From the NCBI GenBank assembly GCA_963790475.1, contig CAWBOS010000012.1, positions 256,001 through 320,000 of the forward strand: a stretch of DNA of 64,000 nucleotides, read 5' to 3'. Both the position numbers and the translations under genes were made by a program. Origin of the DNA: an uncultured delta proteobacterium. Its GTDB lineage: Bacteria; Desulfobacterota; RBG-13-43-22. Within the stretch, counting starts at the first letter, position 1. Each line of letters starts with the position of its first letter. Under the pieces are notes generated by a model that worked only from the letters and a program-made list of their open reading frames with translations, searched no databases and was not told where the DNA came from. Below, one piece after another: positions 59,338-63,256 of the stretch.

Positions 59338-59994
59338 TTACGATTCTGTCATTCTACTTTCATTCTGGCTTCTGGATTCTGTCTTCTTAATTTTTTCCAT
59401 CAACTGCTTCATCAATATGGGATCCTTCTTTCCCGGCCGGTTCTCAACCCCGCTGTTTACATCCACGGCGTAAGGATCGACTGTTCTGATAGCCTCTTGA
59501 ATATTTTCAGGCCCCAATCCCCCGGCTAGGATAACAGGGATTCCTGCTTCCTTGGCCTTAAGGGCCAGAGGCCAGTCAAAGGTCTGGCCCGTACCTCCGG
59601 ATTTCCCCTGCTGAAAGGTATCCAGAAGTACGGCCCTTACGATTCCCTGGTATCTGTTAATATTTTTTATGTCTCTTTCGTCCTGAATACGAAAGGCCTT
59701 GATAGCCTGAGGCATCAAGTCTCGACACATTCCCGGTGATTCCTCCCCGTGCAATTGAATAAGGTCAAGGCCGCAAAAGGATCTAATCTCCTTGATCCTG
59801 GACGGCTCTTCATTGACGAAGACCCCCACGGTCTTAACCAAAGGCGGCAGAGAATGAATAATTGTCCTGGCATCTATCGGCTTTATCCGTCTGGGACTTT
59901 CGGCGAAAATAAATCCAAGGGCGTCAGCTCCCATTCCTATAGCCAGCAGCGCATCTTCCAAATTCGTTATGCCGCAAATTTTTACTCTGGTCAT
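59338..59994 (-). CDS. trpF: Phosphoribosylanthranilate isomerase
   Basis: VKICGIT, QLHGEE, GGTGQTFDW, LAGGL, DVNSGVE. Confidence 0.97.
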   Translation of the reverse strand: MTRVKICGITNLEDALLAIGMGADALGFIFAESPRRIKPIDARTIIHSLPPLVKTVGVFVNEEPSRIKEIRSFCGLDLIQLHGEESPGMCRDLMPQAIKAFRIQDERDIKNINRYQGIVRAVLLDTFQQGKSGGTGQTFDWPLALKAKEAGIPVILAGGLGPENIQEAIRTVDPYAVDVNSGVENRPGKKDPILMKQLMEKIKKTESRSQNESRMTES

Positions 59995-60066
59995 CTCCCA
60001 TTCCCCTTAAACAGGAACATCTTAGGCGCTTAGTGAATCAACATCGACAAAGTTTTGTCGATAATA

Positions 60067-61725
60067 TTATGCTGCCATTTTATAAATTTCAAAAATTTGT
60101 TGCATCTCATGTTGGATATTTTTGTAATGAATATCGATAGTAGAGAAGTTTCCAGGTTTTGGTCCGGGATGATGCTTTTCAGCGCCAGCGAGCAGAGGAA
60201 TCAATATTTTTTCCCGCAGAACAAGGACAGCCGTCATCGAACGCAAGCCCACCGGGGTGGCCATATAACAGCGCGAATGGCCGATCATTTGAACCAGATC
60301 TTTACCTCTAAACTTTTTCAAGTCATAAGAAGCCTGCCGAGCCTGATACCGGCTCTGCGGGATTCTGAGAATTTCCCGGACTTTTTCTGCCAGATTCGCA
60401 GCCGTAAATCCACGGGGATGGATAGAAAGAGCAATAACAGCTTCCATGACCGCCCGGATACGAGGCCGATTGATATCGACCCCTCCCACGGAGGTGGCTC
60501 CAACCTTAGAGGGCAGAGGCCACTTCTCCAAGGTACCGTTATCAATAAAAGAAACATCGACCCCGTTCAGAACGGTGAGGAATCTTTCCAGGACTTCTTT
60601 AAGGGATTCGCAGATCTGTGGGAAACGATCGATCCGTTTTCCGCAACGCAACTGACTCGTATTGTGAATAATAACCTCGGTTCGGAGAACCCTTTCGCCT
60701 TTGCTATACATCTTGACCGTCATTTTTCCAAAATGGATTTTGAAGATCGTCAGATCATAGACAGGTCTCTCGACCGTGATCTCGAATCGAGGCAACGGTT
60801 TCTTGCCGTGATGACTGAATGGCCGGTGTCGATAGCCAAAAATAGTTCGAACCGTCTTGAGATTCAAAGGGGCTCTGGTTCGATCGATCAAGCCCTGGAA
60901 CACCTGATCCAAAGTTCGGCCTCGGTTAAAAAGCAGATTGCGGCTATACTCCATCTGATAAACAGAATAACTGTAATGGAAGCCACTGGCTTTCTGCTCC
61001 GAAAGATCCAAGGCAAAACAAAGACAGGCCGAATAAATCCATTGATCGCAGGTCCGAACCAGACGCCCTACAGAGCACGAGGCCCTCATGGTATCCGCGA
61101 TGTGGTCCAGACCTGCGCTATCGGTCACTGCCGTAAAGCAGTTACCTTCTTTAGTAAAGACAAGCCCTTGTTTCATGGCCTGACGGGATAGATATTCATG
61201 TCCGTTCAGGATGATCTGGGCATTAAAAGGAGGATGGGGACAGAGTTTGATGGTCAGATGTCCCCATTCCGGATCCATTATGTGGAACGAATAATGGTTG
61301 ACATAGGGGTAAGGGGTCTTGGTGGAAATGTTACTGATCCCCCCGCTTTTAGATCGCTGAATGTGGAAAAGGGGTGCCGGAGCAATCCCGGCCAGAATAC
61401 AAAATACACCCCGAAAGTTCGGATCCCCGGGAATATATTGCTCGGCCACCTCGTGCTTTCGTTCACCGCGCTGGCAATGGATCAAGGGAATACCTTCTTT
61501 CTTAGCATAGGCATGAATCCGTCGGCTGAGTCGTCCGGCAAAACGCATCAGGTTGGTATCATTCAGATCGTTATCTGTTCCCTTCAAGGCCCGCCACCAG
61601 GTTCTAAATCCTCCAGGGGACTGGCCAAAAATGAAATAGGCATTGAGCACAATACGATCAATACAATCATAAATGCCGTCAAGGTAGTCTTGATATTGCT
61701 TGCAAAATTCATCTGCCATGATCAT
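60067..61725 (-). CDS. Putative transposase/replication-initiator-like protein with C-terminal winged helix
   Basis: 552 aa; KMYSKGERVLRTEV motif; GFTAANL..QASYDLKKFRGKDLV..Y winged-helix-like end; no recognisable DDE motifs. Confidence 0.7.
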   Translation of the reverse strand: MIMADEFCKQYQDYLDGIYDCIDRIVLNAYFIFGQSPGGFRTWWRALKGTDNDLNDTNLMRFAGRLSRRIHAYAKKEGIPLIHCQRGERKHEVAEQYIPGDPNFRGVFCILAGIAPAPLFHIQRSKSGGISNISTKTPYPYVNHYSFHIMDPEWGHLTIKLCPHPPFNAQIILNGHEYLSRQAMKQGLVFTKEGNCFTAVTDSAGLDHIADTMRASCSVGRLVRTCDQWIYSACLCFALDLSEQKASGFHYSYSVYQMEYSRNLLFNRGRTLDQVFQGLIDRTRAPLNLKTVRTIFGYRHRPFSHHGKKPLPRFEITVERPVYDLTIFKIHFGKMTVKMYSKGERVLRTEVIIHNTSQLRCGKRIDRFPQICESLKEVLERFLTVLNGVDVSFIDNGTLEKWPLPSKVGATSVGGVDINRPRIRAVMEAVIALSIHPRGFTAANLAEKVREILRIPQSRYQARQASYDLKKFRGKDLVQMIGHSRCYMATPVGLRSMTAVLVLREKILIPLLAGAEKHHPGPKPGNFSTIDIHYKNIQHEMQQIFEIYKMAA

Positions 61726-61891
61726 CGGTCTTTCCCTGGTCGATCTTTTGATATGGAGGGCTCCCCAGTCATTGCCGGGGCCCCTTCTCGGCGGCTGCGA
61801 GAATGGGCCCCTGAGCGGCTCGTCGGAGCAGCCGCCTCAATTAGAGGTTCTTTTACAGCTAATATCGGGGCTACCCCTTAAGGGAAAGACC

Positions 61892-61920
61892 AGATTAAAG
61901 ACTCCGGGCTTTTAAGTCAA
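61892..61920 (-). promoter_or_regulatory. Sigma70-like promoter of the inserted element
   Basis: TTGACT-N17-TAATCT on the minus strand. Confidence 0.6.
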
Positions 61921-62016
61921 CTGCCCTGTTAGGGGCCACCTCTTCCGGGGAACTCCCGGACGAGGCGTAGTAACTTAGGAATAGAATTCTACTCAAATTG
62001 GATAGAATATTTCGTC

Positions 62017-62134
62017 GTCATAAGGTCTCGCGGAGGCGGGAATCCAGGCTATTCTCAACTTATTAAAAACACTGGATTCCCTTTTTCAAGGGAATGACGA
62101 AAATAGGCTTTCGGTGACTTTTTACGAATCCACC
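62017..62134. repeat. REP-like double hairpin
   Basis: GCGGGAATCCAG ... CTGGATTCCC..GGGAATGACG then GACTTTTTACGA. Confidence 0.72.
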
Positions 62135-62199
62135 AAATGTTACAATATTTCAAATATGGTTCCGGCTTGTCCGGGTTAGGTGTTTGAAAATAAATTCTC

Positions 62200-62422
62200 G
62201 TTCACTGCAAAGCCGCAAAGAAGGCAAAGAGAATTTTCTTAGAACAATCCCGTGAGTGGCAGGATTGTTCTAACCGACTCTATCCTTCGGATAGAAAAAT
62301 TCAAAGAGGGCTTCGGCCCGAAGGGGACTACTCCCGAAGGGTTGCCAAGCGTATCGATTGCCAGCCTCTCACTGGCAATCGATACATATTATTCTTTGCG
62401 ACCTCTGCGGCTTTGCGGTGAA
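62200..62422. repeat. CACCGCA-family inverted repeat element
   Basis: GTTCACTGCAAAGCCGCAAAG / CTCTGCGGCTTTGCGGTGAA, near-identical to the ends at 28580-28777. Confidence 0.82.
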
Positions 62423-62476
62423 AACAAGTTTTCAAAAAACTAAACTGATACCGTAAACCGAATGGGTTAAGTATTC

Positions 62477-63256
62477 TCATCTTCCTGCCTCGACCATCTC
62501 TATGGTTTTTGATTCAATGTCGGTACTGCTCATCAAGGCCGAACCGACCAGGACGGCATTAAGCTTTAATCCTTTCAGACCCTCTATATGTTTTTGGTTG
62601 TGGATGCCGCTCTCACCCACGATGATATGGCCTTCAGGAATCTGGGCGGCCAGCTCACGGGTAGTCTGCAGGTTAATCTCGAAAGTATCCAGGTCCCGGT
62701 TATTTATACCGATAATTTCCGCCTTGGCATCAAGGGCCTTTTCCAGGTCTTCCCGGTCATGGACCTCAACCAGCGCGGCCAGGCCGCATTCATGAGAGAT
62801 ATGGAGCAACTCCTTTAACTGCGCCTCGGAAAGGATTCTGACAATCAACAGGATGGCATCCGCCCCCCAGGCCAGGGCCTCCCTAATCTGTATCCCATCG
62901 ATAATGAAATCCTTCCTCAGGACAGGCAGGTTTACCGCCTGCTTCACTTCGGGCAGATTTTCCAAGTGCCCGTGAAAAAATTTTTGATCCGTCAATAAGG
63001 ATATGGCGGACGCTCCGCCCCGTTCATAAATCCGGCCGATTTTTATCGGGTCTGTCTTTTCCCGAATCCTGCCAGCCGAAGGAGAGGCAAACTTAATCTC
63101 GGCGATCAGATTGATCCGGCCCGGTTGAGATATGGCGGATTTGAAATCGCGGATTCCGGGGATCTTTCTTTGACCGGGAGAGGATAGGCCGTTTTTTTTC
63201 AGTTGGGCCACTTCCTGCTTTTTTGTTTCAAGTATTTCTATCAGCCGTGAATGCAT
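62477..63256 (-). CDS. trpC: Indole-3-glycerol phosphate synthase
   Basis: IAEIKFASPS, LRKDFI, LVEVH, GINNRDL, ESGI. Confidence 0.97.
   Translation of the reverse strand: MHSRLIEILETKKQEVAQLKKNGLSSPGQRKIPGIRDFKSAISQPGRINLIAEIKFASPSAGRIREKTDPIKIGRIYERGGASAISLLTDQKFFHGHLENLPEVKQAVNLPVLRKDFIIDGIQIREALAWGADAILLIVRILSEAQLKELLHISHECGLAALVEVHDREDLEKALDAKAEIIGINNRDLDTFEINLQTTRELAAQIPEGHIIVGESGIHNQKHIEGLKGLKLNAVLVGSALMSSTDIESKTIEMVEAGR

Follow-up and report, generated by a model that had tools for sequence, protein, structure and literature searches.

The window analysed here is a 64,000-nt stretch from an uncultured delta proteobacterium (assembly GCA_963790475.1, contig CAWBOS010000012.1, positions 256,001 to 320,000), and its subject is an insertion sequence (IS) that lies between two genes of the trp operon and most likely represents a new IS family moved by a tyrosine nickase resembling the Rep_trans replication initiators. 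The flanking genes are trpF (59338-59994, minus strand; Pfam PRAI, E 2.5e-46) and trpC (62477-63256, minus strand; Pfam IGPS, E 6.1e-84), separated by 2,482 nt. In seven same-genus loci, according to BLAST coordinates, the two genes overlap (two loci, L117 and L122), lie 5 nt apart (L121) or are separated by 112-467 nt (the remaining four). Since trpF and trpC lie far closer together in these relatives, the spacer in the window is laden with insertions, and the foreign block that the first-pass annotation of this DNA had placed between the two genes is confirmed both by the Pfam identity of its flanks and by the gap itself. The spacer holds three items: besides the IS (60026-61970) there is a repeat of 209 bp (61971-62179) and, at 62201-62422, another of about 270 bp, whose 30-nt ends are inverted. 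An exact empty site was not found among the relatives, as none of the seven same-genus loci keeps the same spacer, and lone copies of the 209-bp element therefore stand in for it.

Five copies of the IS, 99.4-100% identical, are present in the host genome, on contigs 6, 10, 12 (two copies) and 15. In their alignment the common stretch runs from GCGCTTAGTG... (60026) to ...GGCGTAG (61970); left of 60026 the five copies keep just (T/A)TAG and then diverge, and TAG is common to each side. By this comparison the cut point falls between 60025 and 60026, and the IS measures 1,945 bp from cut point to cut point (60026-61970, gene on the minus strand); TAG at either end leaves a 3-nt ambiguity, and limits of 60023-61967 are equally possible. 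The first-pass annotation had taken the word CTTAGG as the junction on both sides, with a right-hand boundary that overshoots the one given by the five copies by 9 nt. Both CTTAGG words are indeed there (60021-60026 and 61974-61979), but the right one belongs to the 209-bp repeat and the left one straddles the junction. The contig-15 copy, which sits in unique DNA (...CATCATAG^IS^AATCTTATTAGG, with the site TAGAATCTTA, i.e., TAG^AATCTTA), is without the pair and reads ATAG^...TAG^AATCTTATT, so that there is no 6-bp duplication. The empty site predicted earlier, GAACAT-CTTAGG-AATAGA, was wrong because the contig-15 copy and the lone 209-bp repeats show another junction; the latter give ...GAACATCTTAG^TAACTTAGGAATAGA... 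as the empty site. We regard it as virtually certain that the insert is a real insertion sequence; it is autonomous, mobile and multi-copy, and it is active-looking.

The IS has a sole long open reading frame (ORF; 60067-61725, minus strand), which encodes a protein of 552 aa containing KMYSKGERVLRTEV. Right by its stop codon (60067-60069) stands a 3'-subterminal hairpin, ATCGACAAA-GT-TTTGTCGAT (60043-60062), and outside it the 3'-terminal motif ...CACTAAGCGC (60026-60042, minus strand), followed by the flank CTAA. The opposite, 5' end is a non-coding region of 245 nt (61726-61970, minus strand) that starts with CTACGCC on the gene strand and contains conserved hairpins at 61939-61965 and 61923-61936. 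The palindrome next to the stop codon, the GC-rich hairpin at 61939-61965 and the single long ORF had been recognised at the outset, and all are present; folding of the ends gave z = -3.1 on the right and z = -1.7 on the left. The early remark that terminal inverted repeats are lacking also holds, as none of the 25 longest among 94 inverted pairs joins both ends. Each cut point lies within a 10-bp site. On the left this is TAG^GCGCTTA (TAGGCGCTTA; 60023-60032, plus strand), in which TAG (60023-60025) is flank or shared; its gene-strand reading, TAAGCGC^CTA, is kept in 56 distinct flanks. On the right it is TAG^TAACTTA (TAGTAACTTA; 61968-61977, plus strand), whose NNNCTTA half belongs to the neighbouring small element. 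The host genome (G000) also contains internally deleted derivatives of about 225 bp with the same ends and flanks as the IS (contig 10 at 1,336,843-1,337,066, 801,064-801,286 and ~871,430-871,640; contig 6 at ~568,365), which keep the ends TTAG^GCGCTTAGTG... and ...GGGGC(G/C)TAG^ and share an unrelated GC-rich core common to many small host repeats.

Ends of related elements were collected from 80 loci of a genome collection, from the host genome and from one plasmid. At both ends the junction site reads TAG^NNNCTTA on the plus strand, or TAAGNNN^CTA on the gene strand, and the two sites are direct copies. Upstream of the 5' CTACGC, the 33 distinct flanks have T in 21, A in 28, A in 28 and G in 25 across positions -7 to -4, and positions -3 to -1 show no preference. 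The 3'-terminal 7 nt of 56 distinct ends read T (49), A (55), A (56), G (55), C (45), G (56) and C (53), followed by CTA and then by A in 40 of the 56 distinct flanks. The conserved junction is thus TAAGNNN^CTA, in 33 upstream and 56 downstream flanks of elements from many phyla, and differs from the CTTAGG of the first-pass annotation. Because the upstream TAAG varies between copies of one genome (TAAGTTA and TAAGATT in the host; TAAGGGA, TAACGAT and TAAGACC in the alphaproteobacterial genome G041), it lies outside the mobile unit. The landing site therefore mimics the element's own 3' junction, and the element comes to lie between two direct copies of that site. The G041 genome holds 24 full copies (protein 53% identical) with the ends CTACGCTTTTCC...GTGGCCCCTGCGGGGCAGTT and ...CGACAAATTTTTTGTCG...CTTAAGCGC^CTA, and a Mycobacterium riyadhense plasmid holds two (protein 50% identical, annotated as 'hypothetical protein') with the ends CTACGCCGCC...GTGGCCCTTCGGGCAGTT and ...CTCAAGCGG^CTA. 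Alignment of homologous flanks, which had been proposed as a check, hence returned the same ends and the same site in three phyla. At most of the 64 listed loci, the motif CGACAA..TTGTCG lies downstream of the gene's stop codon.

The 5' hairpin is conserved as a structure. Across 30 aligned 5' ends from different genomes, compensatory change occurs in 8 of the 11 pairs of helix 1; pairing is kept in 95.4% of cells compared with 80.9% in shuffles, and the covariation score of 0.395 (0.118 when shuffled) is reached by none of 500 shuffles and is at most 0.113 when the partners are slid by 1-3 columns. One-sided (wobble) change was seen in 0 of 478 cells of the alignment. This absence of wobble favours a structure at the DNA level, as it suits an RNA less well than a structure that is recognised in DNA or is read on both strands. 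An Rfam search returned a lone tracrRNA match inside the 209-bp element, which at 23.6 bits against a cut-off of 70 was taken as chance. As a separate observation, the 3' ends of loci L023, L080 and L082 and the 5' flank of L029 contain two to three tandem copies of a terminal 8-nt unit (e.g., CTAAGGGC); each unit is bounded by TAAGNNN^CTA, and repeated rounds of nicking and joining may have produced them.

The 209-bp non-autonomous element beside the IS ('MITE-B'; 61971-62179, minus strand) provides in its 3' junction the landing site of the IS. Anchor matches to MITE-B number 15 in the host genome, 4 beside the IS and 11 alone; 10 of the 11 lone copies read (T)TAG and then TAACTTAGG / TAACTTAGGAATAG, and the IS sits at the MITE-B 3' junction in four of its five host copies. 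In G041, 18 of the 24 full copies have landed precisely on the 3' junction of another element, 1,635 bp long (L100:3711-5345), that encodes a 501-aa protein, 22% identical to the 552-aa protein (E 4e-26) and with the same K-x-Y-D-K...L-R-x-E segment. Because the far end of MITE-B (CCTAACCCGGACAAGCCGGAACC) matches the 5' end (CCTAAGCCGGCGGAGCCGGAACC) of this second IS type, MITE-B is a miniature of it; an autonomous second-type (type-B) protein gene is absent from the host genome, where all five matches are the IS copies. The IS thus inserts at sites that include the 3' junctions of resident relatives, leading to head-to-tail stacking. The pair also seems to have travelled together: next to three of the IS copies, the MITE-B portions do not differ among themselves (100% identity), and the lone copies show 94-98% identity to them, which argues that the 2.16-kb pair of IS and MITE-B moved as a unit. 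Identical 3.46-kb IS pairs in G041 likewise moved as a unit.

Several arrangements around these junctions were seen in passing. At locus L035 (2328-2572) the IS is followed by head-to-tail mini-elements of 138 nt, each with a CTATGCG 5' hairpin end and a 3' end reading ...TTTAAGCGC, and is preceded by the 3' end of another, different copy. On contig 10 of the host genome (~519,250-519,290; L007), a lone 209-bp element is preceded by TTAGGCGTAG, a 6-nt remnant made up of the first and last bases of the IS only, which may be an excision scar or may have arisen by deletion between the CGCCT words that stand at either end of the IS. On the same contig (~1,521,100-1,521,320), a 209-bp element has its own terminal 9-10 nt swapped for the terminal 14 nt of the IS (GCGCTTAGTG...), a hybrid end that suggests recombination or deletion within a pair of IS and miniature. 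The repeated nature of the region is visible in read data as well: for window positions 59700-62400, public run X1 gave a 1,903-nt contig that is exactly the IS interior (60095-61997) at a depth of 15, with ~34 over the small element and 1.3-4.6 over the flanks, the assembly signature of a multi-copy repeat. For the host genome, completeness is given as 100% and contamination as 9.68%.

We then turn to the protein. It has no match in Pfam, NCBIfam or PHROGs, profile searches against PDB returned nothing, and ESM Atlas gave unnamed clusters only. The first reading had recognised no DDE, serine or tyrosine recombinase motif and had named membership in a known IS family as the outcome that would overturn it; no transposase or recombinase model was matched in Pfam, NCBIfam or PHROGs and no IS-family model in Pfam or NCBIfam (ISfinder was not included). 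Four diverse relatives were also without an NCBIfam match and two of these (L010 and L011) without a Pfam match. Relatives are nonetheless abundant, amounting to 5,854 among 8,000 scored candidates and to 7,445 representatives at the 50% cluster level (E up to 1e-3), and, judged by their record titles, they belong to Thermodesulfobacteriota, Planctomycetota, Chloroflexota, Acidobacteriota, Alpha- and Gammaproteobacteria, Caldithrix, Nitrospirales and others. Most lie on contigs of about 2 kb. The 120 relatives listed are all free of Pfam domains and go by 'hypothetical' or regulator-like names; RefSeq labels plasmid-borne relatives 'hypothetical protein' or 'ArsR family'. Distant homologs (23-25% identity) are carried by only 4 of 40 relatives of the host, a patchy, mobile distribution. 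A literature search found no insertion sequence with a Rep_trans or TATA-box-binding protein (TBP)-like transposase, with subscription journals mostly outside its coverage. The element therefore belongs to a widespread IS family for which no annotation or description was found in Pfam, NCBIfam, PHROGs, RefSeq or the literature (ISfinder not included). Two side observations concern the family. Genome G004 has three copies (L011, L015 and L017) of a 1,734-bp element encoding a distant relative of 515 aa (25% identical, KIYDKEGQVLRVETT), in which the first ~20 nt of the 5' end differ among copies that are otherwise 99.5% identical. Among 44 aligned relatives, one matches Pfam DEDD_Tnp_IS110 (E 8e-6), which probably reflects a called protein running into a neighbouring IS110-type element and not a domain of the family.

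A full-length model reached a predicted local distance difference test score (pLDDT) of 65.6, and its fold search was swamped by winged-helix matches. These correspond to a C-terminal winged helix (residues ~395-513; Z 9-10 to ArsR/MarR-like proteins), which was expected from the first-pass annotation to follow the motif segment. When residues 1-400 were refolded with a more diverse alignment, the AlphaFold model reached a pLDDT of 90.3 and a predicted template modelling score of 0.89. The top Foldseek match in PDB for this region was the replication initiator RepSTK1 (4cij; E 7.5e-4, probability 0.97), and VIA-align returned TBPs at Z 9.1-7.6, RepSTK1 at Z 7.5 (197 residues, root-mean-square deviation 4.9) and RepDE/RepDN at Z 7.1-7.3 (4cwc at Z 7.1). 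Among the matches shown, full-length ones were to TBP, RepSTK1 and RepDE only, plus one chain of a vaccinia transcription complex (Z 6.7), and the others, ranking below the Rep proteins, cover half of the domain only. Viral model matches were giant-virus TBPs and inovirus replication proteins. The structure check suggested in the first-pass annotation thus gave a TBP-like curved sheet with Rep_trans matches at moderate scores, and on the predicted model the catalytic domain is very likely TBP/Rep_trans-like.

Conservation of individual residues was followed in 44 sequences, down to 21% identity, with the misses falling in broken fragments. Invariant or nearly invariant are D23, R24, N174, N195 and Q257 (44/44 each), D151 and E259 (43/44 each), and, in the segment first noted for its likeness to a Y-x-K..R-x-E motif, K338 (41/44), Y340 (43/44), K342 (42/44), R348 (42/44) and E350 (41/44). 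The motif therefore stands, and it falls on two adjacent predicted strands of a hairpin, K338, Y340 and K342 on strand 335-342 and V346-L347-R348-x-E350 on strand 346-353; D23 is on predicted strand 1 and D151 at the end of predicted strand 141-151. In the accessible part of Carr et al. (PMC4797284), the Rep_trans sheet is described as having TBP connectivity, and in RepD Y191, R189, K193, R140, D142, R212 and E214 are placed on the sheet's inner face, with a metal held by E214, D142 and D46. The Rep_trans motifs, as given in passages of PMC5714925, are N' (D), I (RxD), II, III (YxKxxE) and IV (W/LxRxE); we confirmed the motif residues on pT181 RepC and 12 relatives. In the model, the conserved residues would parallel R189-Y191-K193, R212-E214, D46 and D142 of RepD as they appear in those passages, closely though not completely. 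Motif III is alike in having the basic K338 two positions before Y340, with the trailing Glu one position nearer than in Rep_trans.

The Rep_trans initiators (pT181 RepC/RepD, pSTK1 RepSTK1; PF02486), with their kin the MOB_T relaxases of integrative and conjugative elements, inovirus gpII/Phage_CRI and archaeal Rep-Arvir, are accordingly the closest known systems. Shared with them are the TBP-like curved sheet (as the fold is described in the available portions of PMC4797284 and PMC13107129), a Tyr predicted on a beta-strand within (R/K)-x-Y-x-K and R-x-E predicted on the strand beside it, two Asp residues (one on the first strand, the other mid-domain), a C-terminal module of its own for DNA binding, and hairpin substrate DNA. 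Unlike them, the protein is without detectable sequence homology, at 400 aa its domain has roughly double the length and contains large inserts, and Tyr and R-x-E are spaced by 8 residues compared with 21. It also serves a dispersed chromosomal IS, whereas the accessible text of two reviews and of a 2026 paper confines its lists of Rep_trans proteins to plasmids, phages and conjugative elements.

Taken together with the junctions, these features suggest how the element might move. The winged helix and the curved sheet would bind the hairpins at the ends, either extruded or in single-stranded form, with Y340 flanked by K338 and K342 and facing R348 and E350, and with a metal held by D23, D151 and E350. 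Y340 would nick one strand at ^ in both junction sites to form a 5'-phosphotyrosine link, as Rep_trans enzymes do at a plasmid origin, and the strand between the nicks, once displaced or replicated off, would be joined end to end as a circle whose junction reads TAAGCGC^CTACGCC. Reverse chemistry would join the circle junction into a target TAAGNNN^CTA, and host replication would complete the second strand; skipping of the middle site would move the IS and the small element as one 2.16-kb unit. Such a nick-and-circle model would account for the direct rather than inverted sites at the ends, for the likeness of the target to the element's own end, for landing at the 3' junctions of relatives, for the transfer of two elements together and for the tandem terminal units. 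We consider it more probable than not that Y340 performs the nicking and that a circle is the intermediate. The broader reading, to which we assign a probability of roughly 55%, is that the family represents a new mechanistic class of transposase, i.e., a non-HUH tyrosine nickase of TBP fold, related to Rep_trans, that moves a bare IS, probably as a single-strand circle, site-specifically at TAAGNNN^CTA, is present in at least eight bacterial phyla and is invisible to current annotation.

A number of observations weigh against this reading. The structural scores are middling: for Z values of 7-9 the tool warns that a common arrangement may underlie the match, and the Rep proteins score below TBP, a non-enzyme. 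At the level of residues, motif I lacks the Arg of Rep_trans, with I149 in its place, and motif III reads YxKxE, with E344 kept in 20 of 44 sequences. The Pfam Rep_trans model PF02486 matched neither the protein (E up to 1) nor any of the 44 relatives (E up to 10), two distant relatives or the whole host genome (E up to 1). Alignment of profiles with hhalign gave a probability of 0.5% against a 12-sequence RepC-family profile, a weak test because the RepC relatives are at least 81% identical and the profile is shallow, and was negative against RepC alone. Logan contigs from four public runs, which are uninformative on circles, showed no joint across the IS, no end-to-end junction and no empty site; the sole joint listed in public contigs is internal to the small element and stems from a different variant. 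No orientation bias, as would be expected from single-strand targeting at replication forks, was seen in the host or in G041: the 20 host elements have no clear relation to GC skew, where the skew is weak and the copies are few, and the G041 contig 5 copies at ~597, 625, 683, 691 and 707 kb read -, -, +, + and -. IS608-like fork targeting is consequently unsupported. Finally, TAG flanks every copy on both sides, which is also expected from a 3-bp target duplication, and the shared TAG/CTA fits an assignment to element, flank or 3-bp duplication alike.

The fold and the junctions could also be those of an integrated rolling-circle replicon, in which the protein would be a replication initiator, the junction sites an origin and terminator, and the circle a small replicating episome that occasionally re-integrates. 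The initiator-like fold and motifs of plasmids and phages suit this idea, as do the two direct copies of one site, which recall initiation and termination at a rolling-circle origin, and the head-to-tail arrays and reiterated 8-nt terminal units, which resemble skipped termination. We nevertheless hold it to be unlikely, as every copy seen is chromosomal or in a large plasmid and has distinct flanks, with 5 to 24 dispersed copies per genome. Furthermore, no free circular contig was found, the lone 3'-to-5' junction among the stored loci and the genome being a tandem with a different copy, and no second-strand origin or other plasmid function was identified.

Quite unlikely, too, is cut-and-paste transposition with a true 3-bp duplication (TAG/CTA) by an unrecognised double-strand-cutting enzyme of strict target, with the TBP-like domain serving to bind and bend DNA only. 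The TAG on both sides of every copy and the best structural match, a pure DNA-binding TBP (Z 9.1), are in its favour. The target is asymmetric, however, with TAAG upstream only and mimicking the other end of the element, and there are no inverted repeats by which the two ends could be recognised symmetrically. In addition, Pfam, NCBIfam and PHROGs gave no transposase or recombinase match, and an invariant Tyr-Lys/Arg-Glu cluster with three invariant acidic residues would be unexpected in a mere DNA-binding domain.

It is very unlikely that the protein is a winged-helix regulator or a domesticated DNA-binder and that the repeat owes its movement to enzymes of the host or of other origin, or to an RNA-guided recombinase that uses the structured 5' region. 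Some relatives are named ArsR-type regulators by their sources, and the 245-nt 5' region is indeed structured and conserved, but the gene and both ends travel together in at least three phyla with no other gene in the unit. The core site is constant across the family, which makes a programmable guide unneeded, the lack of wobble pairs speaks for a structure in DNA and against one in RNA, and Pfam found no DEDD or recombinase domain in the 552-aa protein. Least probable of all is an HUH single-strand transposon, IS200/IS605-like or IS91-like, with an enzyme diverged beyond recognition, which would share the anatomy (no inverted repeats, subterminal hairpins about 10-17 nt from the cut points, a specific short sequence by one end and co-transfer of neighbours), but for which Pfam and NCBIfam gave no Y1_Tnp, Y2_Tnp or other HUH-family match, the modelled Tyr is on a beta-strand of a TBP-like sheet and not on a helix beside an HUH sheet (compare the available text of PMC4797284 and PMC5714925), and copy orientation flips within 120 kb in G041. 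Three further candidates were dropped: a group II intron, for want of a reverse transcriptase and an Rfam match; a Xer-dependent element, because the target does not resemble dif; and a toxin-antitoxin or defence island, because there is one gene only and it is present in several copies.

With a Rep_trans-like nickase as the preferred enzyme, the element can be set beside known transposons that lack inverted repeats. IS91 has neither inverted repeats nor an ordinary duplication, carries a hairpin near one end, abuts a short specific sequence and co-transfers adjacent DNA when an end is skipped. The present IS resembles IS91, ISCR and Helitron elements (HUH Y2) in the absence of inverted repeats, the end hairpin, the abutting sequence and, as the 2.16-kb and 3.46-kb units suggest, co-transfer; it differs in an enzyme of unrelated fold, with no HUH motif and no Y2_Tnp match in Pfam or NCBIfam, and in a 10-bp target with 7 fixed positions, compared with a tetranucleotide, the same site being present at both ends. 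With IS200/IS605 elements (IS608, ISDra2; HUH Y1 TnpA) it shares subterminal hairpins, the cut points lying here 17 nt and 5 nt outside them, insertion beside a specific sequence that then flanks one end, and many hairpin-bearing miniatures. It is unlike them in its 552-aa, non-HUH protein without a Y1_Tnp match, in the absence of any replication-direction bias seen and in a target that resembles the element's own end junction. IS110/IS1111 elements (DEDD with a guide RNA) are likewise without inverted repeats, insert site-specifically and have a long structured non-coding end, but here there is no DEDD domain, the site is constant across the family, which implies no guide, and the helices are without wobble pairs.

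In the host itself, the IS splits a trp operon whose genes overlap in relatives. The IS gene is co-oriented with the interrupted operon (trpC, IS, trpF and trpB are all on the minus strand), and because of this arrangement expression of trpF, trpB and trpA would then need read-through or a promoter within the inserts. A scan for promoters and terminators upstream of the 552-aa ORF gave nothing convincing. The third, mobile-looking repeat of the spacer (62181-62476) carries its 30-nt inverted ends at 62201-62230 and 62393-62422 (83% complementary) around inner hairpins and has 59 BLAST matches in the host genome at 64-82% identity.

Because its proteins are labelled 'hypothetical' or 'ArsR regulator', the family is missed in genome annotation, in IS counts and in the diagnosis of assembly breaks. 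With its 10-bp landing site and single protein it lends itself to direct tests and has potential as a compact system for site-directed DNA insertion. The transposase chemistries recognised are few, namely DDE, DEDD, HUH, serine and tyrosine recombinases, Cas1 and reverse transcriptase. If the proposed mechanism is true, a Rep_trans-like enzyme driving a plain IS would add a chemistry to this list, and the second great lineage of rolling-circle initiators would have given rise to transposons, as the HUH lineage did.

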